From NCBI GenBank assembly GCA_030645735.1, contig JAUSNP010000005.1:72151-136150 (forward strand): 64,000 bases of DNA, in the 5' to 3' direction. This stretch comes from Candidatus Moraniibacteriota bacterium. Its GTDB lineage: Bacteria; Patescibacteriota; Minisyncoccia; Moranbacterales; UBA2206. Of this stretch, positions 7,351 to 56,571 are shown piece after piece. The first letter of the stretch is position 1. Each line of letters begins with the position of its first letter. The notes under the pieces were generated by a model, which was given only the letters and a program-made list of their open reading frames with translations, searched no databases and was not told the origin of the DNA. Position numbers and translations under genes: made by a program.

Positions 7351-7644
7351 GTGAGAGCTATTAGGAGAACCATTCTGGCGAGTATCATGTGGCAGAGTGA
7401 CAACGGGAAAGATGTTGCTAGCATGTCGCCGTTCGAAAAAGCTCGCATACTGGCATTGAATTCAAAAAATGTCGGAGCATGCAATTCGGCTATTTGGTGG
7501 CTCATGAAAAAGGGCTATGTGAGTAAGGAATTTTCGATTACGGCAAAGGGCAGGGCAAAGAGGCATGAGATAGGCTTCAAAATGGGAAGGGAATTATCTC
7601 TAAAAAGCGAGAGGCAATCTCATATCCTGTCTCGTCCACGATGA
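7351..7644 (+). CDS. Hypothetical protein (possible winged-helix); GTG start
   Basis: Strong SD AAGGAGGAATGCAGA immediately before GTG; GC content above neighbouring genes; 97 aa. Confidence 0.45.
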   Translation: MRAIRRTILASIMWQSDNGKDVASMSPFEKARILALNSKNVGACNSAIWWLMKKGYVSKEFSITAKGRAKRHEIGFKMGRELSLKSERQSHILSRPR

Positions 7645-7669
7645 ATTTTTATGAAGTATTGTTTTGAAA

Positions 7670-7706
7670 GGGCCAGCGGAAAACCGCCGGCCCTTGATTC
7701 TTTTTT
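7670..7706. terminator. Bidirectional intrinsic terminator between the 7351 ORF and thrS
   Basis: GGGCCAGCGG-aaaa-CCGCCGGCCC hairpin followed by TTTTTT. Confidence 0.5.
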
Positions 7707-7710
7707 AAAT

Positions 7711-10441: not shown

Positions 10442-11179
10442 ATGGCTACTACTAAAAAGAAGAATGGGAAAGTGCATAATAAAGGAAATGACATCTCGGA
10501 AGCCTATTATTTTATTATGCATGGGTGTGCTAATCCGGCACAGCTAAAGCCACACGACTGGCTTATTCTTATCGACTATTCTTTGAAGGCCTGTGCTTCT
10601 GTTATGCGTAAGGTGGCAGAAGAAAGGGGTAGTAAAGCAGTTCTTATGAAGGATATTCTAAATTGTTCAGTTGAGGGAGGGGAATATGGCGAAAAAAGAA
10701 TCACTCCTGATGAGGTCATTCGTGGTCTGCCGGGAGCACTGACCGTCAATGACAAGTGGCTTTTTATTCCTGTGCGCACCTTGGAGTCAAGGGAAAAAGA
10801 TGGCAAGTTTTTTGAAAGACGCTTGTTCATTCTCGCTGATTTCGCCCACCTCTTGATTGTGGATGTGGTATTTCGTAAAGAGCCACAGCCGAATCAACGA
10901 GAGGGTATTAAAAAGCCGTTGTTCGACGAGCATGTTCTGGAATGCAAGGTAATGATCGACAAGGAGTGTCTGAGTATGAAAGCAGATGGATTCTTCGAGA
11001 TCATCATGCGTCATCTCGGACATTCCAAGGATAAATTGGGTGAGTACATAATCAAAAATATCCTGGAAGATGCTGTAACTGAGTTAAGGAAAATACGAAG
11101 TAAGACTGAGAAGATTCAGAAAGAGATGCAGCCATTTCTTGATTTGCGGAGGCGGTTGGGAATTTCTGACTGCATCTGA
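10442..11179 (+). CDS. Hypothetical protein
   Basis: 245 aa; SD ACGGAGG upstream; GC higher than flanks; no recognisable motif. Followed by about 590 bp of non-coding sequence. Confidence 0.5.
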   Translation: MATTKKKNGKVHNKGNDISEAYYFIMHGCANPAQLKPHDWLILIDYSLKACASVMRKVAEERGSKAVLMKDILNCSVEGGEYGEKRITPDEVIRGLPGALTVNDKWLFIPVRTLESREKDGKFFERRLFILADFAHLLIVDVVFRKEPQPNQREGIKKPLFDEHVLECKVMIDKECLSMKADGFFEIIMRHLGHSKDKLGEYIIKNILEDAVTELRKIRSKTEKIQKEMQPFLDLRRRLGISDCI

Positions 11180-15277: not shown

Positions 15278-15317
15278 GATATTTTAATGTGTAATTTTTT
15301 TAATTAATTTTTTCTGT

Positions 15318-15438
15318 TAGATAAGTCTAAGGTCTAATATCTAAAGACTAAATGAAGTCTAAAATATTTAAGTCTAATTTCTTTTTACTTTATACTTTAG
15401 ATTTGTTTTAGTCTTTAGTCTTTGAAATTTAGACTTAT
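15318..15438. repeat. Palindromic array of AAGTCTAA/TTAGACTT motifs (locus A)
   Basis: The left half carries aagtctaa-type units and the right half the reverse-complement ttagtctt/ttagactt units around an AT-rich centre. The same architecture and motif recur at 17841 and 62976. Confidence 0.6.
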
Positions 15439-15665
15439 AAAAAATAAAAAAACCACTATTCTAAAAAATAGGGCTTATGCGTCAAAAACTAATAAAAACT
15501 TTTTCATATGATTGTCTCTTCCTTCATAGCCCGGATTGCTCACTGGGTTTTGCAAGGTAGATTGATATGAAACAAGTATAGCATGGTTTGGAAAATAAAA
15601 GAACCCGCTAGAGACACGCATGAAATGTTCTTCATGGGTCTAGCGGGTTCTGGCGGGCAGGAGCA

Positions 15666-16061
15666 TCACGTAGGGATGCATCCTTGAATATTTTTGCGCA
15701 TTTCATTCTCTCCGGGGTGGGTTAAGGATAGGTTTCGCAGCATTTCATGTGGCTGCGTAATTCTTTGACTAACGCCTTTTTGCCAGTCGGCGTATTGTCG
15801 TCTGGCGATGATGTTTAGGGCGGTATAATAAATAAACCGTCCAACGACATATGCGTAATAGTGTATTGTCGGAATGGTGTTACGCATACATTTTGCAACA
15901 ACACGGCGATTGCGCCATGCCATCACGACACCGATAATGCTGCTGATGCCGGCGACTACCCATGCCATAAAAATTGGGTAGTGAACAACAACCACCGGAC
16001 CCATGGTGACTAGCGCCACCACGAAAATCGGAAAAACAGGAAAAGGGTTGGCCTCTTTCAT
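15666..16061 (-). CDS. Hypothetical membrane protein
   Basis: 131 aa with hydrophobic helices; SD AAAGGAGACAGAGAAAC before the ATG; GC elevated; nested hairpin at 15593-15645 downstream. Confidence 0.45.
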   Translation of the reverse strand: MKEANPFPVFPIFVVALVTMGPVVVVHYPIFMAWVVAGISSIIGVVMAWRNRRVVAKCMRNTIPTIHYYAYVVGRFIYYTALNIIARRQYADWQKGVSQRITQPHEMLRNLSLTHPGENEMRKNIQGCIPT

Positions 16062-21539: not shown

Positions 21540-21674
21540 AAAAGACAAATTTCATATAGAATAAATATAATATCCGTAGACAGTAGGCATCCATAAGCCC
21601 TACCGAGGAAGGCCAAAGTGGCTTTTTAGTCTGCGATCAAACGCAGATTTTAATTTTTTAAAGGCACTATCAAT
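21540..21674 (+). promoter_or_regulatory. Candidate structured ribosomal-protein L10 leader (autoregulatory 5' UTR of rplJ-rplL)
   Basis: 135-nt untranslated region with hairpins gcc-aaagt-ggc+TTTTT and tctgcg-atcaaa-cgcaga+TTTT directly before rplJ; position matches known L10-leader regulation in other bacteria. Confidence 0.4.
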
Positions 21675-24531: not shown

Positions 24532-24580
24532 CTTGTTAGCTTTGTGCCTTTCGGAGTGTTATAACGATAGCAGGGTGTTT

Positions 24581-25689: not shown

Positions 25690-26022
25690 ATGTCTAAAAT
25701 AACGGCATTTTTACTCGCGATAGCTCTATCAGTTATTACTGTACTTGCGGACTATTTCATCAAGGAGGCATCATTGAAAACTTCAGTTTGGAGCAAAGCG
25801 CTCTTAGTAGGGAGTTTGATTTATGGGCTGACAGGTCTTGGATGGGTGTTTGTCACGAGACACATGAAACTTTCAACTCTGGGTGTTGTCTACGGAGTAA
25901 GTTGTATAAGTTTATTGGTTCTAGTGAGTGTGTTTACATTTAATGAGAAAATAACTACTATAGAAATTTTTGGAATCATTCTCGGCATGAGTTCTATTAT
26001 AATTTTATATAGATTTGCTTAA
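25690..26022 (+). CDS. Small 4-TM membrane transporter, SMR/DMT-like
   Basis: 110 aa, four hydrophobic helices, EmrE-like size and architecture. Confidence 0.45.
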   Translation: MSKITAFLLAIALSVITVLADYFIKEASLKTSVWSKALLVGSLIYGLTGLGWVFVTRHMKLSTLGVVYGVSCISLLVLVSVFTFNEKITTIEIFGIILGMSSIIILYRFA

Positions 26023-26069
26023 TTTAAAAGCGCCCTTGAGGGGCGCCTTTAAATTTGATTGGGTTGGGG
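26021..26069. repeat. 49-bp direct repeat, copy A (terminator hairpin plus flank)
   Basis: aatttaaaagcgcccttgaggggcgcctttaaatttgattgggttgggg; 48/49 identical to 27544-27592. Confidence 0.7.
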
Positions 26070-26207: not shown

Positions 26208-27428
26208 ATGAGCATAAAGGCCATTATAGTGAAAATCCTTCCTGCATTTAAAGGACGGAATTATCGCCTCCATGTTTGGGGACAATTAATCTCATCTTCC
26301 GGCACTTGGCTTCAAAATGTCACCATGGGCTGGTACATTTGGGATCTGACTCATTCGGAGAGTCTAACTGCTTTGATTTTGGCAATGCCACGCTGTGTCA
26401 GCGCATGTCTGACGATATTTGGAGGAATAATTTCAGACAAGTTTGACAAGAGAGCAGTGCTATATGTCACTAATTTTCTGGGCATGGCACAAGCGATGTT
26501 ACTGGGCTATATGGTAATTAATAATGTTTCGCGTATATGGATTGTTATATTACTTTCCATTTGCTTGGGACTAATTAATGCCATTGACGGACCGGCTCGC
26601 CATTCTTTTCTCCCTGAAATTGTTGACCGAACTGAAATAAGACAAACGAGTTCGTTTAATTCCGCCATCGGTCAGTCGTCTCAATTTGTCGGTTCGAGTC
26701 TTGGCGCAGTGCTACTTGGATTAATCGGAACTGGCTGGACATTTGTCTTGAACGGTCTATCATTTATGGCTGTTATAATTATGCTTAGGATGATGAAAAT
26801 CGACAAGAAAACGGAGATTAGGAAAGACCAGAATAACTATTTCAGGATGTTTAAGGAGGGCGTGGCATATGTCGCTCGTCAACCAAAGATTCGCTGGTAT
26901 CTGGTACTTATTGGAAGTCTAAATTTTTTCGGCTTTTCATACCGAGGGATACTTCCTGTCGTAGTTGAGCAAATTTTTCATTCCGGGGCGAAAAATTATG
27001 CAGTGCTTATGGCTTGTGCCGGAATAGGTGCTCTTATCGGATCCACATTGTCCTCAGCAAAATCAAAGATTTCATTGAATTTTTTTGTTGTTTGCGGAAG
27101 CTTGATTGTTGGTTCCGCATTAATCCTGTTTACTTTGACATCTGTTTTTATACTGGGCATGTCGCTTATGTTTGCTGCAGGTTTCGGTTTAACCCTAAGC
27201 TCATCTAGTGTGCGAGGGGAGTGTCAGGAAGTGATGTCATCGGATATGCGAGGCAGAGTCAATGGCTTTGTTATGATGTTTGCGCTCGGTGGCACAGGTC
27301 TTGGAGGCATAGTAACGGGAAAATTAGCAGAGCTATTTGGAAGCCAATTAGCGCTGATAGTAAGCGGCGTTATGCTGATTATTATCGCCATCATTGTTTT
27401 TGTATTAGACAGGCTTTCAAAACATTAA
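26208..27428 (+). CDS. MFS transporter (EntS/macrolide-efflux-like)
   Basis: 406 aa, about 12 TM segments, MFS-type motifs; SD AGGAG upstream; terminator hairpin GTCCTTTCC...GGAAAGGAC at 27470-27498. Confidence 0.8.
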   Translation: MSIKAIIVKILPAFKGRNYRLHVWGQLISSSGTWLQNVTMGWYIWDLTHSESLTALILAMPRCVSACLTIFGGIISDKFDKRAVLYVTNFLGMAQAMLLGYMVINNVSRIWIVILLSICLGLINAIDGPARHSFLPEIVDRTEIRQTSSFNSAIGQSSQFVGSSLGAVLLGLIGTGWTFVLNGLSFMAVIIMLRMMKIDKKTEIRKDQNNYFRMFKEGVAYVARQPKIRWYLVLIGSLNFFGFSYRGILPVVVEQIFHSGAKNYAVLMACAGIGALIGSTLSSAKSKISLNFFVVCGSLIVGSALILFTLTSVFILGMSLMFAAGFGLTLSSSSVRGECQEVMSSDMRGRVNGFVMMFALGGTGLGGIVTGKLAELFGSQLALIVSGVMLIIIAIIVFVLDRLSKH

Positions 27429-27543: not shown

Positions 27544-27592
27544 AATTTAAAAGCGCCCTTGAGGGGCGCCTTTAAATTTAATTGGGTTGGGG
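27544..27592. repeat. 49-bp direct repeat, copy B, abutting the tRNA-Gln 3' end
   Basis: Near-identical to 26021-26069; the last bases overlap the acceptor 3' end of the minus-strand tRNA. Confidence 0.7.
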
Positions 27593-27658
27593 AGGAGGGA
27601 TTCGGACCCCCGGATGCATGGACCAAAACCATGTGCCTTACCACTTGGCTACTCCCCA
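27587..27658 (-). tRNA. tRNA-Gln (anticodon UUG inferred)
   Basis: Reverse complement TGGGGAGTAGCCAAGTGGTAAGGCACATGGTTTTGGTCCATGCATCCGGGGGTCCGAATCCCTCCTCCCCA folds as a cloverleaf: 7-bp acceptor, D-loop AAGTGGTAA, anticodon stem CATGG/CCATG with loop UUUUGGU, T-arm GGGGG-UCCGAAU-CCCUC. The T-loop is slightly atypical (C55). Confidence 0.6.
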
Positions 27659-27782
27659 ATGTAATAAAATTCGAAATTCGAACATCGAAATTCGAGACAA
27701 TATCTAATATTAAAATTTTAAATAATTAAACAATTCTGTATCTTTTGAATTTGTTTCGGATTTCTTATTTCGTGCTTTGAAT

Positions 27783-29983: not shown

Positions 29984-30727
29984 TTATTCGTTTAGAGGCT
30001 TGTTAAGTTCTTTGCGAAGTTCTTCGATGTCGGGAGCCCATTCATCGATGATAGAAAAATCTTTTTTGGGTTCTTCTTGAATTGGAGTTGCTTCTGGTTC
30101 GTCGACAGTTGGTTTTTTGTCATTGATGATGTCGTCAATGTCGGTGTTTCTTTCTTGCGCTTTCATTGAAGCGAAACTGCGCATAGCACTGCCTTTCTGA
30201 ATTACATTTTCAATGGATGCCCAATCTGAATCGATGTCGCGTGGAGTCACCAAAGTCACTTCATCGCCTGGTTCAACTTTGAAATAGGTGATGGAAGCCA
30301 AAAGTACGCGATAGGGTTTGCCATTAGCGATGATGAAAAAATTGCCATCAGCATCTTGATTCACAATTCCAATTAGACGGGTTCTTTCGATGGGTCCAAT
30401 TTGTTTGTAGATGAATGATCCGTCTGGAGTGATGGTCAATTTCAACATATCACCCTCGATCAATTTTGATTTTGAAGCATAGTTGGCTGGCACGGGATAT
30501 TGCTTGTCATCAGTGCCCAACATAATTTGACCATCGAAAGTTCCTTCGATGACTCGGCCTTCTTCATCATCATCCATCTTTTTCTTGCGGCCAACTTTTT
30601 TCTTGCCTTCCAGTTGCAAAAGCATTGCCTTGGCGGATTGCAAGCTCTTTTCAGAGTTATAAATCATCTCACGCAAAGCTTGAACTTTATCAGAAATATT
30701 TTCTTGTGGATCCCTTTCTTCAGTCAT
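29984..30727 (-). CDS. Hypothetical protein (acidic termini, central beta-rich region)
   Basis: 247-aa ORF immediately upstream of the GtrA-like gene; no motif recognised. Confidence 0.45.
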   Translation of the reverse strand: MTEERDPQENISDKVQALREMIYNSEKSLQSAKAMLLQLEGKKKVGRKKKMDDDEEGRVIEGTFDGQIMLGTDDKQYPVPANYASKSKLIEGDMLKLTITPDGSFIYKQIGPIERTRLIGIVNQDADGNFFIIANGKPYRVLLASITYFKVEPGDEVTLVTPRDIDSDWASIENVIQKGSAMRSFASMKAQERNTDIDDIINDKKPTVDEPEATPIQEEPKKDFSIIDEWAPDIEELRKELNKPLNE

Positions 30728-30866
30728 TTTATTTTTTTTGATTTGTTTTTATTTTATATATAAATTATACAATCATTTTACTAGGCATGCAAGGCTTGCT
30801 CGGGTGTGGATAACATAATATAATAGAATCGTTGAGAAGATGTGGGTTTATATTTTCTAAAAAAAT

Positions 30867-31190
30867 ATGACTAATCAAAATTGTTGGGAATTCAAAAAAT
30901 GCGGACGAGAAATCGATGGCGCCAATGTTGATAAGTATGGAGTTTGTCCAGCCGCGGACAATGTTTCAGCAGATGGATTTTGCGGTGGCAAAAATGGCGG
31001 GCGCGCTTGTGTGTATATTATTGGTACGCTATGCGATGGCATTTGCCAGGTGTCACTGCGCAACAAAGAAAAAAAATGTGAAGAATGTGAATTCCACAGC
31101 CAACTCAAAAAAGAACATCCAGATGAAATGAACATTTTTGCCTATTTGGATTATGTAAACAAAGACAAGAAAAAGTTGAGTGAAAAATAG
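30867..31190 (+). CDS. Cysteine-rich small protein (9 Cys; CWEFKKCG...CEEC)
   Basis: 107 aa; Cys at 6, 11, 27, 39, 48, 56, 60, 71, 74; lysine-rich C-terminus; GTGTGGATAAC motif 50 bp upstream. Confidence 0.5.
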   Translation: MTNQNCWEFKKCGREIDGANVDKYGVCPAADNVSADGFCGGKNGGRACVYIIGTLCDGICQVSLRNKEKKCEECEFHSQLKKEHPDEMNIFAYLDYVNKDKKKLSEK

Positions 31191-31345
31191 TTTCAGCATC
31201 AGCGTTTGAGGCAGGGAATTGAACCCTGTTTTTTTGTTGACAAAGCTCATGGTTTTGCTAGGATTATCGTCAGCAGCAGTACCTTAAACTAGTTTAGCTA
31301 ATAGCTAAATATAATCTAATAAAAGTCAGAAAGGGAGATGCGGTC

Positions 31346-31879
31346 ATGACGAAATACTTGCTAGATAACTATGCATGGTCTTGTTTGGCTTTTGGCTTGA
31401 TTGCTTTTCTGTGCTTGGATGGGTGGATTACTAAATTTATTCATGCTATGAGTGAGCGGTTTCAACAGAAGTATGGTTGGGACAATATGCTGTTGGCAAA
31501 ATACTTAGCCGGAGCGCTTATGTCCATCTGGATTTTTATTGCTTTGGTGGCGACATTGTCGGATTTGCGAACGCTAGTGCTAAACATGTGTGTGGCTGGG
31601 TTGCTTAGTATCCCACCAGCCTCCCTTCTGCTTCTGGGCAAAAAGGCAAGAGGTAACTCATTATCTGCAAAAGTAATGCTTATTATTTTTAAGCAAATCC
31701 TTTGGATAGCTTTGATTGCGGTCGTCAGGATAAACTACATTGAAGAACAGCCACTGCAATGGGTTGCAATCATGGCGTTGGGAGTAATCGCCTTGATTGG
31801 TATTATCTATCTGGTTGCTCCAATCAACAAGAAATGCACGGACAATTTGCCGTGCCGTTATCCGGGAATTTCTGCTTGA
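31346..31879 (+). CDS. Hypothetical membrane protein
   Basis: 177 aa, 4-5 hydrophobic helices; SD GGGAG; GC elevated; GC-rich terminator hairpin at 31906-31950. Confidence 0.5.
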   Translation: MTKYLLDNYAWSCLAFGLIAFLCLDGWITKFIHAMSERFQQKYGWDNMLLAKYLAGALMSIWIFIALVATLSDLRTLVLNMCVAGLLSIPPASLLLLGKKARGNSLSAKVMLIIFKQILWIALIAVVRINYIEEQPLQWVAIMALGVIALIGIIYLVAPINKKCTDNLPCRYPGISA

Positions 31880-32040
31880 CCATGCTCAGGCGCGCGCCAC
31901 CCCAAAGCCCGACCTTGTTTTCACAAGAGGTTGGGCTTTTCTTATTATTTGACGCGCTGATTATTTCTTGTTATTCTGCATCAATGCCAAACTTGGCATA
32001 CAGATTGTTCTTACTAATAATTTTAGATTGAGGGGGTGAG

Positions 32041-32376
32041 ATGGCAGAGACAATAATTAGAACATTTGAAGATCTGGTCAAGCTAATTATGTTGGGCAAT
32101 CCCGATCCAGCAGCTGGAGGGCTTGTGCTATTAGATCGCCAGCTCTGGAATCAACGCTGGGTCAAGTGTTCGATTTATCTGGGCGATGATAGCCCTGATG
32201 TGCTGTTGAGCGATTCTGCTGATAAAAATATTCGCACGACTAGCGAGGGAGGAGTTGAGCTGAGGGTCAATATGCTAGTTGATCAACATAAAAAGTTAAT
32301 CGTGTATAAGGTCGAAGCAGACGGCCGACCCAGAAAGTTCATTTGGGAGATGGACTATAAAAAGAGTAGCAAATAA
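32041..32376 (+). CDS. Hypothetical protein
   Basis: 111 aa; SD GGGGGTGAG; GC elevated. Confidence 0.4.
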   Translation: MAETIIRTFEDLVKLIMLGNPDPAAGGLVLLDRQLWNQRWVKCSIYLGDDSPDVLLSDSADKNIRTTSEGGVELRVNMLVDQHKKLIVYKVEADGRPRKFIWEMDYKKSSK

Positions 32377-32663
32377 ATATTTGCTGCCACCACACGCGGG
32401 GTGCTTCTTTATGAGGCGCCCCTGTTTTTTATGTTTAAAAATAATTTTTTTAGGATTTGAAACCGAAGTGGCAATTTTTGGGTGATTGACACAAATTGCA
32501 TAGTTTTCTAAGATATAAATATCAAGAAGTAATTCAAGTTCTTTAATCCCCACTGTGGGGTTTCGCAAATGCGAAATAACAAAGCCGAAAAGGAGGCGGC
32601 GAAGTCTAGTCTAGTTTTTTTGTGAGAGGTAAAATAAAATAAATCTCAACAAAAAGCGAGGCA

Positions 32664-33110
32664 ATGATGGAACAGATTAAATTGATGAAGCATAAGCTTT
32701 TATCGGCGCTGATGGCAGCACTCGTTCTCTTGTCCGGTGGATTCGTTGCATCTGCAACCGCCGTGCCTAATGGCGTGACGGGATTGGCGACAAATGCCCT
32801 GGTGGTGATGCCCAACACCGAGAAGGGACAAATCGCGGCTACTTCACATGACGCTGGCGTCATCATGTTGCTCATGGCCAAGGCGGGTCCGGCAGATCAG
32901 GAGGGTCTCGACCAGCGGAGTCTGGGGAATGACTCCTGGGGCGACAAGGTGATGGTCAAGGACGGATCGGCGGCCGACTGGGAACATCTCGGCAAAGCGG
33001 GCGGTCAATGGGTGGCCCATGGTTCATCCCGCAGTATCTATAAGGCGATGGCAGTGCAGGTCGGCGATCAGATCAACTACAGCGGCAAGGTCGAGAGCGC
33101 CATCATCTGA
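32664..33110 (+). CDS. Secreted hypothetical protein (signal peptide) of strongly elevated GC
   Basis: Signal-like N-terminus MKHKLLSALMAALVLLSGGFVASATA; about 58% GC; GC-rich terminator (ATAGCCAGA...TCTGGCTAT+T6) at 33149-33197. Confidence 0.55.
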   Translation: MMEQIKLMKHKLLSALMAALVLLSGGFVASATAVPNGVTGLATNALVVMPNTEKGQIAATSHDAGVIMLLMAKAGPADQEGLDQRSLGNDSWGDKVMVKDGSAADWEHLGKAGGQWVAHGSSRSIYKAMAVQVGDQINYSGKVESAII

Positions 33111-33237
33111 TTCCCGGGCGAATCCCTCAACACAAGCTACACTCGTGGCAAACATAGCCAGAGCCCTCATCCGGGGGTTTCTGGCTATCTTTTTTATTTA
33201 AAGAAATTTTAGTGTTCCTAATGGAGCGCTTTTTTAT

Positions 33238-33840
33238 TTGCCCAAAGCTGGGTTTTGGAATAAAATTTTTAGTAGAATACAAAATAAAAATAATTTCAAA
33301 AACAAAAACATGGGCGAGCCTGCTTATAAAAATCTTTTGACTTACAAATATGCCGTGCTTATTTATGATATGAACAAAGAATTCATCGCACGATTTGTTT
33401 CTGGGGCAGAAAACATGAGGCAACGTCAACAGATGGACCAAGCGGCACGCTCATCCAAACAATGCATCGTCGAAGGCGCGATGCAGGGCACGAGTCTCAA
33501 GGGTTATATCAAAATGCTTGGAGTTTCGCGAGGGAGTTGGGAGGAATTGCTGGAGGATTATAAGGATATTGCCAGGCTTGGGAAAATTGAGGTTTGGAAT
33601 TCTGAGGGGTTGAGGAGGGAAAGGGGGTTCAGGGTTTTCGTGAAAGACAACGAACCTCTACCTCCTACACCTCCGCTACCTCCTGACTTCGCTGTGTCGG
33701 TCAACATTATGATTGATCTCATCACAAGGACAAACTTTCTTCTGGATCAACAAAAAAGAGCGCTAGAAGAAAAGTTTTTGAGAGAGGGTGGTTACACTGA
33801 AAATTTGTACAAAAAACGCAGAGAAACGAGAGGGTTTTAG
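33238..33840 (+). CDS. Four-helix-bundle protein (23S rRNA intervening-sequence protein family-like); real start probably MGEPAYK
   Basis: The segment YKYAVLIYDMNKEFIARFVSGAENMRQRQQMDQAARSSKQCIVEGAMQGTSLKGYIKMLGVSRGSWEELL matches the general pattern of the family; terminator at 33862-33888. Confidence 0.45.
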   Translation: MPKAGFWNKIFSRIQNKNNFKNKNMGEPAYKNLLTYKYAVLIYDMNKEFIARFVSGAENMRQRQQMDQAARSSKQCIVEGAMQGTSLKGYIKMLGVSRGSWEELLEDYKDIARLGKIEVWNSEGLRRERGFRVFVKDNEPLPPTPPLPPDFAVSVNIMIDLITRTNFLLDQQKRALEEKFLREGGYTENLYKKRRETRGF

Positions 33841-34003
33841 TTTGTAATATTGAATATCCAGCAGCCTTGTTAGGGCTGTTTTTTTGTCGCTCGACCTGTG
33901 GATAACTCGCCCTTGCCAATGTGGGTGAGTGGAGTAAAATAGGGAGGTAGGTAACTCAAGTGGTACATTGTGGGGATTCACAATTAGATACTACTGAATA
34001 AGC

Positions 34004-39598: not shown

Positions 39599-39764
39599 AT
39601 AGATAGTAGAAAAGAAAAATAAATACACAATTGAATAGGGGGAAATCAAAGTCGCACTTTGAAAACAAAAGACAGTTTCTTGTGATAGGATATTGTCTTT
39701 TGTTTTTTTACAGAGGTCAAAACAAAAACCAAAACCAACAGCAAAACAACGAGGGAGGAGAAAA

Positions 39765-39929
39765 ATGTCTGGACATAGAATAGACGTAGTTCCCGAGGAA
39801 GTTTTGAGCAGGAAGAAGGCTGCTTTGGCTGCTTTGGAGCATGGCTTAACTGGAGATATCAGTAAAGAAGATCTTCGTAAAGCCAGGCGGGTTTTTATTG
39901 AACAAAATTGTCGTGGTGCGGAACATTGA
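39765..39929 (+). CDS. Hypothetical small protein (54 aa; MSGHRIDVV...)
   Basis: SD GGGAGGAG 6 nt before the ATG; the ORF-track start at 39693 is less likely. Confidence 0.35.
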   Translation: MSGHRIDVVPEEVLSRKKAALAALEHGLTGDISKEDLRKARRVFIEQNCRGAEH

Positions 39930-40954: not shown

Positions 40955-41029
40955 GCCGCCATCGTCTAGCCCGGTCAGGACGCCAGGTTCTCATCCTGGA
41001 AATCAGGGGTTCGAATCCCCTTGGCGGTA
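40955..41029 (+). tRNA. tRNA-Glu (anticodon CUC)
   Basis: GCCGCCATCGTCTAGCCCGGTCAGGACGCCAGGTTCTCATCCTGGAAATCAGGGGTTCGAATCCCCTTGGCGGTA: 7-bp acceptor, Glu-type D-arm TCGTCTAG, anticodon loop TTCTCAT, T-loop GGTTCGAATCC. Confidence 0.8.
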
Positions 41030-41053
41030 CTTTTAAAAATAATTTCAAACTTT

Positions 41054-42121
41054 GTGGATGCGAGAAAGGCGTTAGCAGAATTTAAGCAGAAAGTTGATCC
41101 GGAATTGGATGCTTTTTTTGACCGCGTAATTGCAGAAAATGAAAAGGTAGATAGAAACATTACAGATGCCATCAAATATGCCCGCAAGATCACAATGTCA
41201 GGTGGCAAAAGAGCGCGCGCTGCTTTCATTTACTATGGCTATTTGGCGGCTGGTGGAAAAGAAAAAAAGAAAATTATTGAGGCTAGTGTTTGCATTGAAC
41301 TTATTCATTCCTATTTGTTGATGCATGATGATATCATCGATCAAGATGAGTTGCGCCATGGTGTGAAAACCACGCACATTCACTATGCGCAGATGGCAAG
41401 AAGATATTTTAGACACAAGAACGCGGAACATTTTGGGAATTCAATGGCTATCATTATTGGCGATATGCTAAACAGCTTGGGCAATCGGGTTTTGTTTGAA
41501 TCAAAATTTGCCCCAGAATTGATAATCAAAGCTTTGTATCGTATGCAGGACATCGTTTCTTTCACAATTATTGGTGAGACGGAAGATGTGATGATTGAAA
41601 ATCGCGGCCGAGCGACCGAAAAAGAAATCATGCGAATGTATGAAAATAAGACGGCGAAGTACACCATTGAAGGCCCATTGCATTTGGGGGCAATTTTGGC
41701 AGGAGCTGACAACAGGTTTTTGCAAACTTTGAGCGCCTATTCAATCCCAGCTGGCATCGCTTTCCAGATTCAGGATGATATCCTGGGTGTTTTTGGATCA
41801 GTGGGCAAAACTGGCAAGCCAGTTGGTTCAGATGTGCGACAGGGCAAGCAAACTATCTTGGTAGCCAAAGCGCTTGAAAAAGCGGATAAGAAGCAAAAAG
41901 AAATTTTAAAAAGATGCTTGGGCAACAGCAAGCTGACTAAAAAAGACCTAGAAGAATTTAGGCAAGTTATCATAGAAACAGGTTCACTAAAATACGCGCA
42001 AGATTTAGCTAAAAAATTAATTTTGGAAGCTAAAGAAAAAATACAAAAAGTCACTATTGCTGTTGAGGCCAAAGAATTTTTATTAGGCATTGCCGACTAT
42101 ATGCTGAATCGGGAGGTTTAA
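41054..42121 (+). CDS. Polyprenyl diphosphate synthase (trans-isoprenyl diphosphate synthase)
   Basis: First DDxxD LLMHDDIIDQDELRHG and second FQIQDDILG aspartate-rich motifs; start uncertain (the ORF-track TTG start overlaps tRNA-Glu; the GTG at 41054 is used here). Confidence 0.8.
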   Translation: MDARKALAEFKQKVDPELDAFFDRVIAENEKVDRNITDAIKYARKITMSGGKRARAAFIYYGYLAAGGKEKKKIIEASVCIELIHSYLLMHDDIIDQDELRHGVKTTHIHYAQMARRYFRHKNAEHFGNSMAIIIGDMLNSLGNRVLFESKFAPELIIKALYRMQDIVSFTIIGETEDVMIENRGRATEKEIMRMYENKTAKYTIEGPLHLGAILAGADNRFLQTLSAYSIPAGIAFQIQDDILGVFGSVGKTGKPVGSDVRQGKQTILVAKALEKADKKQKEILKRCLGNSKLTKKDLEEFRQVIIETGSLKYAQDLAKKLILEAKEKIQKVTIAVEAKEFLLGIADYMLNREV

Positions 42122-42211
42122 TTATGCATCTATCGTAGAGACGCCTCGTCGGGGCGTCTCTACATTTGTCCGGATTGCCTATTTCCTAATTTCAAGGTAA
42201 AATGCGTATAT

Positions 42212-49154: not shown

Positions 49155-50060
49155 ATGGCGCATGTAACTCGGCAGTTGATAAGAGGTATCAAGTTAGGCG
49201 ATAAACTATCTATAAATCAGCATAACCAAGAAGGTGGTAGTCCATATGCCTTGCCTGATATGTTACGCAAGGCTTATCTGGATGCGGGCTATGGGGATTT
49301 GCCAACCAATCGAGATGAGGCAGTTGATCGGGGGGCAAAAACATGGAATGGAGCGCAGGTAGCCATTAATAAACTGGCTGTTGTAGACGGTGTAATTCAC
49401 GGGAATTTGGTGACTTTACCCTGGATGTACTCCCAGGCGATGAACGATTTGTACAACATGCGTATGCCCAACACTTTGTTGGCTCGCATAAGTCCAAATT
49501 TTCTCCACGTATCGCTCTTGGCGCAGGTTATGTACAAGGGAGCGTTGTGCCTGGTAGGGCAGGTTCGCGGAGATGTCATCGGTAAAGGTGAATTGCAAAC
49601 AGCATTATGTGCTGGGAGCATGAACAAGGCGTGTGCCATTGCCGGTGACGACATGATTATACAGGGACTGGAAGATAATCTGATGCGTGAAATCGGACTC
49701 AATCTCGGCTGTCTCAATATCAAGCCGGGAAAGATTCTCTTTCATGAACCAGAAGTCGGCCGCGTCAATCTGGCCAGTGTGTCAGAAGTATATGACTTCG
49801 AGCATGTAAGGATGGTTTTTCAAGCCCATCATGACTCTATGGTCACTAGTGGCAGCAAGCCGGAATGTGCTAGGCTGGCACTAATACCGGTAGCGACTGA
49901 TCCGTTTAATGTGGTTTGCGACAATGGCGACTCGCGGAGATATGTTGCGAAAGCCATTGAATTTTACGACCCGATAACAAAGGATTTCGGGGTTGCGGAT
50001 TTTCTTTGCCGATATCTCACGCAGGCAGTTATAGATCATCTGATCGAAGCTGACCTGTAG
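49155..50060 (+). CDS. Hypothetical protein (orphan, GC-elevated, own promoter and terminator)
   Basis: 301 aa; SD GGAGAGG; about 50% GC; no recognisable domain; 7 Cys. Confidence 0.5.
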   Translation: MAHVTRQLIRGIKLGDKLSINQHNQEGGSPYALPDMLRKAYLDAGYGDLPTNRDEAVDRGAKTWNGAQVAINKLAVVDGVIHGNLVTLPWMYSQAMNDLYNMRMPNTLLARISPNFLHVSLLAQVMYKGALCLVGQVRGDVIGKGELQTALCAGSMNKACAIAGDDMIIQGLEDNLMREIGLNLGCLNIKPGKILFHEPEVGRVNLASVSEVYDFEHVRMVFQAHHDSMVTSGSKPECARLALIPVATDPFNVVCDNGDSRRYVAKAIEFYDPITKDFGVADFLCRYLTQAVIDHLIEADL

Positions 50061-50083: not shown

Positions 50084-50130
50084 AATCCTCCTGGTTTACG
50101 GTATTCCGTAAATCAGGAGGATTTTTTTTA
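50084..50130 (+). terminator. Strong nested intrinsic terminator after the 49155 ORF
   Basis: AATCCTCCTG-gtttacggtattccgtaaat-CAGGAGGATT followed by T8. Confidence 0.7.
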
Positions 50131-53569: not shown

Positions 53570-53681
53570 TGATATAAATCGCAAATCAATCACGAATCTT
53601 TCCCGAATGATCACGAATGAAATCTGAAAAATTAGAGATTATTAGAGTTTAATTAGTGTAATATTAGAGATTTATAACATC

Positions 53682-55664
53682 ATGCCAGAAATAAATTTTT
53701 TTGCTAAAACTAATTTCAGAAATCAGGAAGTGAGCTTCGGTATCAAGCGCGATGATCGAAGGCGGCACATGTATGTGATTGGAAAGACTGGAATGGGAAA
53801 ATCTAATCTTTTGGAGAATATGGCTATTCAGGATATTCGCAATGGCGAAGGTGTTTGTGTAGTTGATCCGCACGGTGAGTTTGCGGAAAAGATGTTGCAA
53901 GCAGTGCCAGCGGAGCGCATCAACGATGTAGTCTATTTCAATCCGTCGGATGCGGAATTTCCAATCGCTTTCAACATTTTGGAATCAGTGGCGGATGATA
54001 AGAAAAATCTCGTGGCTTCCGGTATGATGGGCGTGTTCAAAAAGATTTGGCCGGATGTGTGGAGCGCTCGAATGGAATATATTTTGAGCAATACAATTTT
54101 GGCACTTTTGGATTTTCCGGGTTCAACTATGCTGGGAGTGAATCGCATGATGTCTGACAAAGATTTTAGAAAACGAGTCTATCCAAAAATCAAAGATCCA
54201 GTGGTAAAATCTTTTTGGCTCAATGAGTTTGACAAGTGGGAGGATAAGTTTCGAAAAGAAGCGGTGGCAGCTATTCAAAACAAAGTCGGACAGTTTTTAT
54301 CTTCTTCAGTCATTCGCCATATTGTGGGGCAACCAAAATCGACCATTGATATGCGTGACATTATGGACAATCAAAAAATCTTGATTGTGAATTTGTCCAA
54401 AGGTCGGATTGGTGAAGACTCGATGCGACTTTTGGGTGGAATGCTGATCACAAAAATTCAGTTGGCAGCTATGAGTCGTGTAGATATGCCAGAGGAAGAC
54501 AGAGTAGATTTTTATTTATATGTGGATGAATTCCAAAACTTTGCCACAGAATCTTTTGCTAACATTTTGTCTGAAGCCAGAAAATATAAATTGAATCTGA
54601 TTTTGGCGCATCAATATATCAATCAGTTGATTTTTGATGGCAATGCCACGGTGCGTGACGCTGTGTTTGGCAATGTGGGAACGATTGTGTCTTTCCGTGT
54701 GGGCGCGGAAGATGCGGAAGCCTTGGAGAAGGAATTTGAGCCAGTTTTCATGATGAATGATATTGTGAATCTTTCTAAATATCACATCTATCTGAAATTG
54801 ATGATTGATGGCGTGGCAGGGGATGCTTTTTCAGCCACAACTTTGCCTCCACTTGATCTGACTGGAACAAGTGGCAATGAAGAAAAAATTATTCGCGTGA
54901 CACGGGAGAAATGTGGCCGGCCAAAAAGTGAGGTGGAGGATCGCATTGCTCGCTGGAGTGGTATGGAAGTTTTCAAAGAAGCACCCGCTGGTGGACAAGA
55001 AGAGGCTGATGATATGGATTCAGAATTGTATGAAGGACCAAGCGTGACAATTGAACCGCCTCCAGCTTCAACCCCAACGCTTATTTTTAGACCAACCAAT
55101 CCGCCGGTTGAGTCACCAGTTATTCGACCAGTAGTGACTCCAGTAGCAAGACCAATCGCTGTGCCTGTCGCTCAAAAGTCAGTAGCTCCGGTAGCAAAGA
55201 CTGTTGTGCAAACAGCAGTGTCTGCCACAATGCAAAAAATTGAATCGGCATTGAGTCAACCATCTGCACCAGCTGAGGTTGCAGTTGAAAAACCAAAGGA
55301 AATGTATTCAACTATTTGCGCGACTTGTGAAGAAATAATTACGGTGCCGTTCAAACCAGATCCCGCCCGTCCAGCTTTTTGTCGAGAGTGCTTGAAAGAG
55401 CATCAGCGCATGATGGCCAGAAAGAAAAATGAATTGGCGGAACAACAAGCTCCAGCAGTGCGAGTGAATCCAATTGTGGCTAAGATTGAACCAGAAAAAA
55501 ACATTGCGCCAGAATCACAGCGAGTGGTGCATGCTCCGCAAGACAAGCCGATGAGCCTGTCTCAAATGTCTCACATTGCTCCCAAAGCTTTCCGTTCACA
55601 AAAGCAAAAGCCAGACCTGGGCGCAATCCGAAGCATCATTCAGGAGGCTAGAACTGAGAAATAG
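53682..55664 (+). CDS. FtsK/HerA/VirD4(TraG)-superfamily P-loop ATPase with a Pro/Val-rich linker and C-terminal CxxC...CxxC zinc ribbon
   Basis: Walker A YVIGKTGMGKSNLLE, Walker B FYLYVDEFQNFA; C-terminus CATCEEIITVPFKPDPARPAFCRECL; 660 aa. Confidence 0.65.
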   Translation: MPEINFFAKTNFRNQEVSFGIKRDDRRRHMYVIGKTGMGKSNLLENMAIQDIRNGEGVCVVDPHGEFAEKMLQAVPAERINDVVYFNPSDAEFPIAFNILESVADDKKNLVASGMMGVFKKIWPDVWSARMEYILSNTILALLDFPGSTMLGVNRMMSDKDFRKRVYPKIKDPVVKSFWLNEFDKWEDKFRKEAVAAIQNKVGQFLSSSVIRHIVGQPKSTIDMRDIMDNQKILIVNLSKGRIGEDSMRLLGGMLITKIQLAAMSRVDMPEEDRVDFYLYVDEFQNFATESFANILSEARKYKLNLILAHQYINQLIFDGNATVRDAVFGNVGTIVSFRVGAEDAEALEKEFEPVFMMNDIVNLSKYHIYLKLMIDGVAGDAFSATTLPPLDLTGTSGNEEKIIRVTREKCGRPKSEVEDRIARWSGMEVFKEAPAGGQEEADDMDSELYEGPSVTIEPPPASTPTLIFRPTNPPVESPVIRPVVTPVARPIAVPVAQKSVAPVAKTVVQTAVSATMQKIESALSQPSAPAEVAVEKPKEMYSTICATCEEIITVPFKPDPARPAFCRECLKEHQRMMARKKNELAEQQAPAVRVNPIVAKIEPEKNIAPESQRVVHAPQDKPMSLSQMSHIAPKAFRSQKQKPDLGAIRSIIQEARTEK

Positions 55665-55893
55665 TAAAAATGTTGCTTGTATAACTCAAAAACCCTGCAC
55701 TGGCAGGGTTTTTGGCTTAAATAGGTCGTATTATCGCCGTGACCTTGACTTTTATATTAAAATGTGCTAGTATTCACAATTAGTACATTAACAACCACCA
55801 CCTATGTGGCAATAAGCAGATTAGGCTCGACCTAGTCTTTTTGTTGCCACAGTTGGGTGGTTAGAAGTTAAAAAGATATTTTAGGAGAGAAAG

Positions 55894-56571
55894 ATGAAAA
55901 AGTTGAGTGTTGTATCTATATTGGCAATGGCTTTGGCTTTGGTGGGAATGATTGCTTCTTCGGCACTTGCCGACGGAGCGGACATTCTTCCCTGGTCATA
56001 TCCGAATGGCCAGGAGGGACAGACTTTTGCCTTCGGTATTTCCCAGAAGATTTCCAATCCACAAATAAGAATCAATGTCGGAGGCGGGAATCGCAAGAGT
56101 GTCTCCGCCGTTACGCTTGATGAGGACAATTGGGCGGAGGTGTCAATCCTTAAAGAGGGTGCGTATAATATTCGCGTCACTGTAAAGGGTGAAGAGCAAC
56201 TCACTCAAAACCTTTCTCGGAGCGTGCATGTGCACATTGAATACCCAGTCAAAGTGGGTAAGGTGTATTTCCGAGATCATTATCGGATGCACCTCGCCAA
56301 TGGCAACATCGGCTACACCTTTATGGTTTATCCGCAGTTCGGCTACGAGATGCCGGATCGCATCGACGCCGAGGTTACTTTTGGCGATGTGATTAAGGAA
56401 GTCTCTTTCAGCTGCGGACAGAACTACATCCGCAACCAGGGGTATTGCGAGACTAACATCGTCGAGCTCACCCCGAGTGAATATGTAGAGGTGTTGGGTG
56501 AAACCTACACCTGTTTAAAAACTGATGAAACGGAAAGCTGTCAAAACATCCGTTTTGTCAATTTCCAATAA
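55894..56571 (+). CDS. Secreted hypothetical protein (signal peptide; 4 C-terminal Cys)
   Basis: MKKLSVVSILAMALALVGMIASSALA signal; SD AGGAGAG; about 50% GC; no known domain. Confidence 0.5.
   Translation: MKKLSVVSILAMALALVGMIASSALADGADILPWSYPNGQEGQTFAFGISQKISNPQIRINVGGGNRKSVSAVTLDEDNWAEVSILKEGAYNIRVTVKGEEQLTQNLSRSVHVHIEYPVKVGKVYFRDHYRMHLANGNIGYTFMVYPQFGYEMPDRIDAEVTFGDVIKEVSFSCGQNYIRNQGYCETNIVELTPSEYVEVLGETYTCLKTDETESCQNIRFVNFQ

Follow-up and report, generated by a model that had tools for sequence, protein, structure and literature searches.

The bacterium examined here, from a Candidatus Moranbacteria MAG (CPR/Patescibacteria), appears to run two modes of translation start side by side: a conserved core that begins translation without a Shine-Dalgarno (SD) sequence, and a flexible set of SD-led genes in which the SD is maintained. 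We favour this reading with moderate confidence for the 64,000 nucleotides analysed (the window), which belong to a tiny-genome groundwater bacterium. The original prediction had likewise separated SD-less, AT-rich core genes from SD-bearing, GC-richer ORFs, and had interpreted the latter as laterally acquired genes still carrying the signals of a donor, possibly a host or partner organism; this interpretation is partly supported by our results.

Two classes of gene start

We scored the 20 nt before each longest-ORF start (-20 to -1) with the anti-SD probe ACCUCCUUA, and 12 of the 64 ORFs in the window reached the cut-off of dG <= -7, where random 20-mers would give about 1.8 and the stretches that precede all ATGs of the window about 2.5. 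After start corrections, SD scores are bimodal and 15 ORFs stand as a separate SD-led class from the 51 others (median extended anti-SD duplex energy -11.4 versus -1.5 kcal/mol; Table 1). The two classes also differ in GC (0.457 versus 0.404, Mann-Whitney p = 2e-6), as originally predicted, in GC3 (0.469 versus 0.400, p = 3e-4) and in the use of TGA as stop codon (8/15 versus 3/51, Fisher p = 1.3e-4). The 12 ORFs that had been listed as having strong, correctly spaced SDs all carry an SD-like motif, but the spacer of hyp245 is long and the motif of the ORF at 32664 is weak. The other three members of the class are the ORFs at 261-764, 4588-4815 and 61120-61551. A ftsL/DivIC-like gene at 35666 was considered as a further SD gene and rejected, its score being due to a conserved, non-canonical CAGGGGGCTG motif.

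Table 1. Positions of the SD-led ORFs and associated elements in the window.
Feature	Position	Strand	Motif before start	Promoter-like site or terminator	Remarks
NUDIX-domain protein, 167 aa, TTG start, SD-led	261..764	-	acAGGAGGGTGAagcg before TTG; dG -12.4 with extended anti-SD	promoter-like 854-826; strong terminator 246-214	Pfam NUDIX E 1.4e-07; GC 0.458
hyp75b, 75 aa, TGA stop	4588..4815	+	tagtGAGGTGGacat before ATG		adjoins miaA; GC 0.469
Intergenic block upstream of miaB	7280..7350	-			complement bears hyp97 SD; conserved in window, L167, L168
hyp97, 97 aa, GTG start, TGA stop	7351..7644	+	AAGGAGGA 7 nt from start		antisense in thrS/miaB gap; GC 0.456
hyp245, 245 aa, TGA stop, SD-led	10442..11179	+	GGAGG, 12-nt spacer		
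hyp131, 131 aa, TGA stop	15666..16061	-	AAGGAGA 9 nt upstream	promoter-like 16172-16144 and 16108-16080	dnaE/rnhB gap; two N-terminal hydrophobic segments; GC 0.472
hyp197, GTG start, SD-led, consecutive with hyp75	24581-25174	-	GAGGAGG 7 nt upstream	hairpin 24520-24551, common to the hyp75/hyp197 unit and the converging Lit gene	GC 0.480
hyp75, TGA stop, SD-led	25223-25438	-	GGGGGTGA 8 nt upstream, taking ATG at 25438 as start	promoter-like 25517-25489 (hyp75/hyp197 pair)	
Left copy, 49-nt direct repeat (att-like)	26021..26069	+			98% identical to 27544-27592; terminator hairpin plus TTGGGTTGGGG, the tRNA-Gln end
MFS_3 transporter, 406 aa, SD-led	26208..27428	+	AAGGAGA 7 nt upstream		within repeat-bounded islet; Pfam MFS_3 E 2e-44
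Right repeat copy (27544-27592) overlapping 3' end of tRNA-Gln (27583-27659)	27544..27659	-			tRNA called by both ARAGORN and Rfam
Variable 3.2-kb block between hyp247 and mraZ	30704..33896	+		terminators 31208-31232, 32398-32422, 33211-33230	replaced by 178 bp in L084
SD-led ORF in 3.2-kb block	31346-31879	+	AAGGGAGA	promoter-like 31237-31264	
SD-led ORF in 3.2-kb block	32041-32376	+	GAGGGGGTGAG	promoter-like 31993-32021	
SD-led ORF in 3.2-kb block	32664-33110	+	GAGG merely 2-5 nt from start	promoter-like 32486-32514	weakest SD
hyp54, 54-aa mini-ORF, TGA stop	39765..39929	+	GAGGGAGGAG 5 nt before ATG	TTGACA / 19 nt / TATAAT at about 39571-39601	annotated frame scores best
hyp301, 301 aa, orphan, SD-led	49155..50060	+	AGGAGAGGA 4 nt upstream	terminator with 18-bp stem 50084-50123	GC 0.478
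hyp225, 225 aa, predicted signal peptide	55894..56571	+	AGGAGAGA 4 nt upstream	promoter-like 55745-55773	hydrophobic N-terminal segment; GC 0.475, GC3 0.549
hyp143, 143 aa, probable SD-led	61120..61551	-	GAGGTGAT abutting TTG-ATG; dG -12.2 with extended anti-SD		annotated frame scores best; GC 0.442

SD-led genes, at least 15 in the window, are small (median 148 aa) and lie in the spaces that separate syntenic blocks of core genes, in many cases antisense to the adjacent genes. Several have a promoter-like site and a terminator of their own and thus look monocistronic; the promoter-like sites, scanned over the first 60 kb in three 20-kb segments, are in two of these segments barely more frequent than in shuffled sequence. 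ORFs with an SD tend to have no Pfam hit (Fisher p = 7e-4), and the SD-led ORFs have no matches in PHROGs, PADLOC or NCBIfam, which agrees in part with their earlier description as ORFs of unknown function, although the one at 26208 encodes an MFS_3 transporter. The division into annotated and hypothetical genes fits less well, as the annotated NUDIX gene has an SD and hypothetical genes lacking one are core-like, with a low GC of 0.383, so that the compositional split tracks the SD and not annotation status. Membrane or secreted proteins occur within the set (MFS, hyp177, hyp131, hyp148, hyp225), and no function or domain shared across it was found.

That these ORFs could be an artefact, through spurious ORFs, chance or non-SD purine motifs, a chimeric contig or a misread genetic code, is highly improbable and largely refuted. 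Several of them are indeed short (54-111 aa) and without homologues, the apparent SD of the ftsL-like gene is no more than the conserved CAGGGGGACTG motif that precedes it, and one ORF of the 15, hyp75b, has an ambiguous frame score. In the other 14, however, a codon-frame model built from core genes ranks the annotated frame first of six; the 12 SD-led ORFs observed compare with about 2 expected; chance would very rarely produce ORFs of 197-406 codons at such GC (about 1e-7 for 300 codons, by our own estimate); and hyp245, MFS and NUDIX belong to real protein families. A separate Logan assembly (run SRR13727526) contains the window DNA with 100% identity, and the genetic code of the window is standard, with in-frame TGA absent from the long conserved genes. 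The spacing between the GGAG core and the start codon also argues against chance motifs, peaking at 6-9 nt across the lineage (35/45 cases).

The same partition is found in relatives, sampled as a few genomic neighbourhoods rather than whole genomes. In 673 kb of related low-GC DNA from 51 loci (genes present in at least three loci were counted as conserved), a canonical SD precedes 29 of 325 locus-specific ORFs (8.9%), a set that includes spurious ORFs and some wrong starts because genes were called naively (longest ORF, greedy non-overlapping choice), and 3 of 333 conserved genes (0.9%), against a chance rate of 2.0% (odds ratio 10.8, p = 6e-7). The predicted lack of SDs in core genes is thereby borne out. 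Across 357 conserved genes, the leaders reach an A frequency of 0.61 at -6, with G at 0.08-0.10 over -7 to -1, and genes internal to operons (tmk, dut, Mur ligase) also lack an SD. One locus, L170, shows the pattern in full, with a higher GC and TGA stops in its SD-led genes; a response regulator belongs to its SD-led set. The anticipated link between SD and composition holds for GC and GC3 in the window, but over the 51 loci SD-led genes show no significant excess of GC (+0.013 versus +0.005, p = 0.9). No 16S gene lies in any of the loci sampled.

Location in the variable part of the genome

Several SD-led genes lie in the variable part of the genome: in slots filled with unrelated ORFs in each relative, in a tRNA-linked islet and in a 3.2-kb block that holds three of them. 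Five genomes, including that of the window, have an antisense SD-led ORF in the slot between thrS and miaB (75-118 aa in L165, L167, L168 and L170), and the five proteins are mutually unrelated (pairwise z <= 1.1). The conserved block upstream of miaB reads, on the miaB strand, CCTCCTTGATTTCA, a 17-nt spacer, TATTCT and a hairpin (AGGTAT..ATACCT), and looks like a promoter with a putative -35 element TTGATT and -10 element TATTCT. The gap equivalent to that between dnaE and rnhB in L165 likewise contains an SD-led ORF, of 90 aa and unrelated to hyp131. The tRNA-Gln that borders the MFS islet lies downstream of dnaX also in L084, L093 and L095, and beyond it the last two carry different cargo, partly SD-led. 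Finally, the block between hyp247 and mraZ, which comprises hyp107, three SD-led ORFs and a gene for a four-helix-bundle 'IVS' protein, is missing from L084, the closest relative, even though the two share 80-90% DNA identity.

Genomic islets, tRNA-linked islands and phage 'morons' are self-contained promoter-gene-terminator units of atypical GC that sit between conserved genes. The SD-led single-gene units resemble them in their promoter-like sites and terminators, their atypical GC3, the variation of slot content between relatives and the duplicated tRNA 3' end that flanks one gene. They differ in that the window has no integrase, phage gene or PHROG hit, and in the stable inheritance of several SD-led genes, which relatives have in the same place.

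These features bear on an explanation that develops the original prediction, namely that an SD-using host or partner passed on the genes laterally in the recent past and that their SDs are unselected leftovers which will decay with time. Besides the atypical GC3 and TGA usage, it draws on the 98%-identical att-like repeat that brackets the MFS gene at tRNA-Gln, on the absence of the 3.2-kb block from L084, and on hyp148 in that block, with a GC of 0.570 and GC3 of 0.685. It also draws on the six SD-led ORFs of the 0-27 kb part (NUDIX, hyp75b, hyp97, hyp245, hyp131, hyp197), for which BLASTP detected no homologue in four relatives whose dnaE is 85-89% identical and whose other flanking core genes are 50-91% identical. 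Further points are hyp301, an orphan whose sole match among 5.8 billion proteins is itself, and, in L107, an SD-led glutamine synthetase with a GC of 0.467 in a locus of 0.354. The higher GC3 and frequent TGA stops do suggest that many SD-led genes would derive from GC-richer, SD-using genomes.

Conservation of the SD and the search for donors

As a whole, the donor-relic explanation is nonetheless unlikely, since it predicts that SDs decay in older copies and the opposite is seen there. Every SD-led family for which homologues exist (MFS, hyp245 and hyp75b) has them at comparable positions in other Moranbacteria-type contigs, and at 46-67% protein identity all of these retain the SD amid altered flanking bases. 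The MFS homologues in L163 and L164 (67% identity) keep AAGGAGA at unchanged spacing; those of hyp245 have GAGGAG 5 nt upstream in L170, where the gene adjoins thrS, and AAGGAGG 6 nt upstream in L169; and that of hyp75b in L170 (779-1030) again adjoins miaA and has ctacGGAGGGGtt before ATG. In L170, the hyp245 homologue has moreover reached the local GC (0.375 versus 0.381) with its SD intact. In line with this, an SD in one of two homologous genes is matched by an SD in the other in 17% of cases, where the base rate is 1.0% (odds ratio 22.7, p = 2e-15). The families MFS (3/3), hyp245 (3/3), hyp75b/h83 (2/2) and L113/L126 (2/2) are concordant, and nearly all discordant pairs stem from three large core families, each with a single sporadic SD-like member. 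Conservation of the SD in the face of divergent protein and flanking DNA argues that it is maintained and contradicts its passive retention.

The searches for a source also speak against the donor-relic explanation. We found no donor lineage for any SD-led ORF and no pointer to a host or partner organism; homologues outside Moranbacteria, or in phage, plasmid and defence libraries, were absent from the searches made, which included viral contigs (hyp301, hyp197, hyp225) and plasmids (hyp148, hyp301). Outside the Moranbacteria-type group, the nearest MFS relatives are just 35-40% identical. By exhaustive HMMER search, hyp245 belongs to a small, lineage-restricted family (12 clusters, 34-47% identity over the full length), and its AlphaFold2 model (pLDDT 86) has no Foldseek match in the PDB or BFVD. 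As no donor lineage was found, the case for foreign origin is one of composition and patchy distribution. Nor does foreignness in itself entail an SD, as genes that clearly belong to mobile elements are SD-less and low in GC in relatives; among them are a recombinase, a replication protein, a GIY-YIG protein and a DGR reverse transcriptase with bAvd. Conversely, ordinary cellular genes can have an SD in relatives, as does dnaA in L145, so core and flexible genes are not absolutely divided.

Comparison with known initiation systems

SD-independent initiation from A-rich leaders is known from the 'group B' genomes of GeneMarkS-2 (bioRxiv 10.1101/193490) and from Bacteroidia, whose ribosomes disregard SDs and depend on upstream adenines (PMC13000453, PMC13000457). 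In Flavobacterium johnsoniae, the anti-SD is sequestered by bS21/bS18/bS6, rpsU is the lone gene with a strong SD, and ribosomes without bS21 translate it (PMC13000453, PMC9976891, PMC13000457). As in Bacteroidia, most window genes, ribosomal and operon-internal ones included, are SD-less with adenine-rich, G-poor upstream regions, and a minority have a strong extended SD. Unlike in Flavobacterium, a member of the Bacteroidota, that minority amounts in this CPR bacterium to about 15 of 66 ORFs in 64 kb, and consists of non-core genes of diverse or unassigned function, with no ribosomal protein gene among them.

This precedent, with its sequestered anti-SD and specialised initiation complex (PMC13000453, PMC9976891, PMC13000457), lends some appeal to the idea that the SD marks a regulated class, in which accessory, membrane and secreted genes are switched together translationally because the anti-SD is accessible in certain conditions or on a subset of ribosomes only. 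SD status passing down by gene family in an all-or-none manner, its frequency in core genes at or under chance (0.9% versus 2.0%), and the inclusion of membrane or secreted proteins and of the L170 response regulator in the SD-led set would fit. We regard this as quite unlikely, however, given that the set has no common function or domain and that regulation alone leaves the difference in GC3 and TGA stops unexplained.

Within the same superphylum, a subgroup of Parcubacteria has lost the anti-SD motif, which was detected in just 48% of Parcubacteria (Tsurumaki et al., 2022, RNA; PMC9297842), a published explanation of why core genes in CPR may be SD-less. That study covers rRNA features and does not assign Moranbacteria to either anti-SD group; the partition of genes within a genome is a feature of the present analysis. 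The conserved SDs described here argue that this Moranbacteria lineage still has a reader of the motif.

Under the two-mode reading that we prefer, core genes, including those internal to operons, would start SD-independently from A-rich, G-poor leaders in the manner of Bacteroidia. Judging from the conservation of the SD, the organism would possess a functional anti-SD whose pairing with the SD drives the translation of SD-led genes, since these lack the A-rich leader of the core type. The SD of these genes is maintained in the lineage, and would thus be in use and more than the leftover of a donor.

Two classes of translation start in the window

When the region from -20 to -1 relative to the first in-frame start of each ORF was probed for pairing with the anti-Shine-Dalgarno (anti-SD) sequence, 12 of the 64 ORFs in the window fell at or below our threshold of -7 kcal/mol, against 1.8 expected from random 20-mers and 2.5 from the regions upstream of all window ATGs. 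This confirms the originally predicted split between SD-led and SD-less genes, which we could also extend to the lineage. In the final comparison, carried out with an extended anti-SD probe, the median duplex energy is -11.4 for 15 SD-led ORFs and -1.5 for 51 others, with distributions that scarcely touch, and the only ORF outside the SD-led set that scores below -6.7 is an ftsL/DivIC-like gene. Three members of the class (NUDIX, hyp75b and hyp143; hypothetical ORFs are named by their length in amino acids) are additions to the set first proposed.

The two classes also differ in composition. GC content is 0.457 in SD-led ORFs and 0.404 in the others (p = 2e-6), GC3 is 0.469 and 0.400 (p = 3e-4), and TGA stops, a feature that was not part of the original prediction, terminate 8 of 15 and 3 of 51 ORFs, respectively (p = 1.3e-4). 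Hypothetical genes that lack an SD have a GC content of 0.383, as low as that of core genes, so the dividing line is the SD and not the annotation status. The SD-led set had been described as one of hypothetical ORFs, but three of its members belong to clear protein families, namely those of an MFS_3 transporter, of a NUDIX protein and of hyp245.

Support for these ORFs being genes comes from a codon log-odds model built on 40 core genes, which ranked the annotated frame first of six in 14 of the 15, the 75-codon ORF hyp75b being the only ambiguous one. The homologues of hyp245 fall into 12 clusters (34-47% identity) with motifs conserved along the full protein, and every homologue inspected for its context comes from a Moranbacteria-type contig; its confident structure model matched no known fold and a BFVD fold search was likewise empty. 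Several SD-led ORFs have an N-terminal hydrophobic stretch or multiple hydrophobic segments, and an all-against-all BLASTP revealed no paralogy within the set.

The window, with a GC content of 40.7%, belongs, by exact protein matches, to a 142.6-kb contig of a MAG labelled Candidatus Moranbacteria bacterium with locus tags Q7T51_*, and Logan contigs of run SRR13727526 contain its DNA with 100% identity. Pfam annotation gives a gene set typical of small-genome CPR bacteria, comprising, on the basis of Pfam and the gene tables, nucleotide and tRNA genes (folA, tmk, dut, gatB, miaA, miaB, thrS, mnmA, alaS), replication and RNA processing genes (dnaE, rnhB, nusB, rnc, a short smc, dnaX), ribosomal protein genes (rpmF, rpsP, rplJ, rplL), cell division and envelope genes (mraZ, rsmH, a PBP, a Mur ligase, uppS, ftsA) and the redox genes trxA and trxB. 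The genetic code is standard: dropping TGA as a stop lengthens many ORFs, all of them off-frame, and the long conserved genes contain no in-frame TGA and nearly all stop at TAA or TAG, which rules out a recoded UGA (codes 4 or 25).

Positions in the window of SD-led ORFs and of other features discussed in the text
Feature	Position	Remarks
NUDIX	261-764	SD-led
hyp75b	4588-4815	SD-led
hyp97	7351	SD-led
hyp245	10442	SD-led; spacing outlier (12 nt)
hyp131	15666	SD-led
hyp197	24581	SD-led
hyp75	25223	SD-led; most likely start ATG at 25438, with GGGGGTGA 8 nt upstream
MFS	26208-27428	SD-led
ORF at 32664	32664	SD-led; spacing outlier (2-5 nt)
hyp54	39765	SD-led; 54 codons, GAGGGAGGAG 5 nt upstream (DNA read directly)
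hyp301	49155	SD-led
hyp225	55894	SD-led
hyp143	61120-61551	SD-led
3.2-kb variable block	30.7-33.9 kb	
200-aa ORF in variable block	33238-33840	
ftsL/DivIC-like gene	35666-36094	
Motif upstream of ftsL-like gene	35640-35665	directly before the ATG
(GGAACGT)n runs in miaA	5214-5240; 5593-5637	one copy inverted
(GGAACGT)n runs in miaB	6644-6674; 7055-7085	
(GGAACGT)n run in mnmA	57732-57820	
Conserved block beside the thrS/miaB slot	7280-7350	
Imperfect inverted repeat	15308-15451	between the dnaE start and the hyp131 end
Palindromic element	19907-19937; 29479-29504; 42134-42164	first copy inside smc
L10_leader	21556-21662	upstream of rplJ
mraZ-side repeat element	34000-34045	spans the mraZ start and the bases right before it
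tRNA-Glu	40955-41030	
Polyprenyl synthetase gene	41021-42121	longest ORF, TTG start

Some further features concern the starts and leaders of individual genes. The ftsL-like gene is preceded by the motif tCAGGGGGaCTGaaaat(a/t)a, which was scored as an SD but is not canonical; it is conserved in at least 10 relatives (among them loci L084, L087, L088, L091, L093, L112, L123, L126 and L131) and may form a small CAG/CTG hairpin with a G-rich loop. The repeat element GTCATTGCGAGGAG...GACGTGGCA at mraZ holds an SD-like GAGGAG and has a related copy in the thrS/miaB gap of locus L167. The TTG start of the longest polyprenyl synthetase ORF overlaps the 3' end of tRNA-Glu; the real start is probably further downstream. 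The genes rplJ-rplL follow rpsP, with no rplK-rplA upstream, and are preceded by a match to the Rfam L10_leader (45 bits, gathering score 44), a context that may bear on the presence of uL1 in the lineage.

Distribution and retention of the SD among relatives

A metagenome scan with hyp247, the conserved neighbour protein to the left of the 3.2-kb block, yielded 80 related loci at 49-91% identity, and nine extra relative loci were obtained through homologues of MFS, dnaE and hyp245; all of these loci are SD-poor. For the lineage-wide test we used 51 low-GC related loci (673 kb, 757 ORFs) and defined a canonical SD as a GGAG or GAGG that ends 3-12 nt before the start and has a duplex energy of ≤ -7. 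Such an SD precedes 8.9% of the ORFs without a homologue in any other locus and 0.9% of the genes conserved in at least three loci (odds ratio 10.8, p = 6e-7; chance rate 2.0%), and in 35 of the 45 lineage-wide cases the spacing between the 3' end of GGAG and the start lies in the peak of 6-9 nt. The predicted association of the SD with higher GC, by comparison, holds in the window but does not generalise statistically across the 51 loci.

The GC excess does reappear clearly in locus L170, where seven SD-led genes alternate with SD-less miaA, miaB, thrS, hrcA, grpE and dnaK; six of the seven have a GC content of 0.42-0.49 in a locus of 0.381, and four end in TGA. Elsewhere, SD-led genes include a glutamine synthetase (GC 0.467 in a locus of 0.354), an SPFH protein, an epimerase, a CDP-alcohol transferase and one dnaA. 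Obvious mobile-element genes of relatives, namely those for a serine recombinase, a replication protein, a GIY-YIG protein, a DGR reverse transcriptase with bAvd and a HepT/MNT pair, are SD-less and low in GC, which counts against the SD as a passive donor relic.

Where SD-led genes have homologues, the signal is kept. Two MFS homologues at 67% identity (L163 and L164) retain AAGGAGA and its spacing while adjacent bases have changed, the one in L163 lying downstream of rplL within the same core order from rpmF to rplL. Homologues of hyp245 at 46-47% identity retain their SD (GAGGAG, AAGGAGG), and one of them lies beside thrS, as in the window, with its GC content already at the local level; the hyp75b homologue in L170 is SD-led and sits beside miaA. 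SD status is shared by all members compared in the families of MFS (3/3), hyp245 (3/3), hyp75b/h83 (2/2) and L113/L126 (2/2), and across all homologous pairs it is strongly concordant (odds ratio 22.7, p = 2e-15), the discordant pairs being traceable almost entirely to three large core families, each with a single sporadic motif.

Five genomes (the window, L165, L167, L168 and L170) have an antisense SD-led ORF of 75-118 codons in the gap between thrS and miaB. The stretch AAATCAAGGAGG is identical in three of the five, and the five proteins are unrelated (z ≤ 1.1). Three genomes share a conserved SD and start region but have wholly different ORF bodies, which suggests replacement just downstream of the SD. 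A conserved block beside this slot resembles a promoter of miaB (TTGATT, 17 nt, TATTCT) and is followed by the hairpin AGGTAT..ATACCT. Within the coding regions of the tRNA-modification genes miaA, miaB and mnmA we observed runs of the 7-nt repeat (GGAACGT)n, which code for short inserts such as GTWNVERGT, RGTWNAKRG and VERGTQNVKR.

Variable, partly inserted genes and their possible sources

Among relatives, the order of core genes is conserved and the content of the gaps differs. Locus L084, with proteins 84-97% identical to their counterparts in the window, has 178 bp in place of the 3.2-kb block, which carries hyp107, three SD-led ORFs and the gene of a four-helix-bundle protein. This block, hyp97, hyp131, hyp197 and NUDIX are absent or replaced in close relatives, and MFS, hyp245 and hyp75b occur at comparable positions in other relatives. 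A BLASTP of NUDIX, hyp75b, hyp97, hyp245, hyp131 and hyp197 (0-27 kb) against four relatives with dnaE 85-89% identical gave no match.

The MFS gene lies between two 49-nt repeats that are 98% identical, each consisting of a terminator hairpin and the final bases of tRNA-Gln, an arrangement that classically points to integration at a tRNA. The tRNA-Gln downstream of dnaX is also present in L084, L093 and L095, and in the latter two it is followed by different, partly SD-led cargo. No integrase was found anywhere in the window, and around the remaining SD-led ORFs we saw no convincing flanking repeats.

Other repeats and variable features were noted in passing. The palindromic element GTAGAGACGCC...GGCGTCTCTAC occurs in three copies, of which those outside smc sit at gene ends and are terminator-like, and an inverted repeat of 60 nt, imperfect at 75% complementarity and with a loop of 24 nt, is rich in TAGTCT/AGACTA units. 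The 200-aa ORF of the variable block has a weak match, below the Pfam cut-off, to the 23S rRNA intervening sequence protein family (PF05635), a four-helix-bundle fold family that includes the DGR accessory protein bAvd; in L165, a reverse transcriptase with bAvd occupies another variable gap.

As to sources, hyp301 has no homologue among 5.8 billion proteins, and the nearest MFS homologues are from Moranbacteria, beyond which identity falls to 35-40%; for neither of these nor for the hyp245 family did we find a donor with closest homologues in another lineage. For an origin as a prophage, moron or defence island we found no support in homology to known viral or defence proteins: SD-led ORFs gave 0/10 matches in both PHROGs and PADLOC and none in NCBIfam, viral contig scans with hyp301, hyp197 and hyp225 gave no match (the hyp245 alignment being too divergent for a scan pattern), BFVD was empty for the hyp245 model, and tblastn of hyp148 and hyp301 against plasmids found nothing. 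The original prediction had read the SD-led ORFs as lateral acquisitions that retain donor signals, possibly those of a host or partner. What stands of this is that the genes are flexible and partly inserted; no link to a donor or host emerged, so that import from a host receives no support, and the SD is maintained rather than residual.

Proposed initiation regimes and their implications

Across 357 genes conserved among the related loci, the frequency of A is 0.43-0.61 from -11 to -2, with a peak of 0.61 at -6, and that of G is 0.08-0.10 from -7 to -1. Leaderless transcription could in principle account for core genes without an SD, but the operon-internal genes tmk, dut and a Mur ligase have the same A-rich, G-poor upstream regions, which excludes it. 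The core-gene pattern matches group B of GeneMarkS-2. Bacteroidia ribosomes disregard SDs and depend instead on adenines before the start (PMC13000453, PMC13000457). The SD-less core genes of the window lineage, with their A-rich upstream regions, resemble this mode, and the SD-blind regime of Bacteroidia, with its lone SD-led rpsU, is the closest known system; however, only rpsU and the prfB frameshift site have strong SDs in that regime, whereas the window has about 15 in 64 kb, before unrelated non-ribosomal genes, and the SD-led accessory genes of this lineage are many and heritable. Sequestration of the anti-SD in Bacteroidia involves bS21, bS18 and bS6.

We propose that two initiation regimes exist side by side, with core genes on SD-independent A-rich leaders and a flexible set of small genes on canonical SD pairing. 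The higher GC3 and the TGA stops make an ultimately foreign origin, from a GC-richer, SD-using source, likely for many SD-led genes, the SD then being held by selection. Several of these genes may have their own promoter-like site and terminator, although a consensus promoter scan stayed near the shuffled expectation in two of three segments and the individual sites are at most suggestive. Retention of the SD by selection would imply that the ribosome can read it. An intact 16S anti-SD tail would read ...GAUCACCUCCUUA, with the core CCUCC; neither the window nor any related locus contains a 16S gene, a search for the 3' end of 16S rRNA in the collected loci found it only in two unrelated bacteria, and a scan for genome contigs with DnaX, through a universal motif, matched unrelated phyla and no Moranbacteria. 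A survey reported a detectable anti-SD in 48% of Parcubacteria and is silent on the Moranbacteria group (PMC9297842).

A more far-reaching scheme, which we consider rather unlikely, is that one cell has two initiation channels, an SD-blind, adenine-dependent one for the core and an SD-dependent one for a host- or environment-facing flexible pool, with access to the anti-SD, which could depend for example on differences in bS21 content between ribosomes, acting as a global switch for the SD-led class and with incoming genes needing or gaining from an SD if they are to be expressed. If this were true, the SD would durably mark genes that are not ancestral and would filter the foreign genes able to take hold.

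CPR bacteria are uncultured, and the one published hint we found on how they start translation is that about half of Parcubacteria lack a detectable anti-SD. Our results have the consequence that the anti-SD is probably still functional in this lineage, that the SD is usable as a simple sequence marker of the flexible gene pool in these genomes, and that gene callers with one start model per genome misplace the starts of one of the two classes. With this pattern it becomes directly testable whether a Bacteroidia-style SD-blind ribosome had an independent origin in CPR bacteria.
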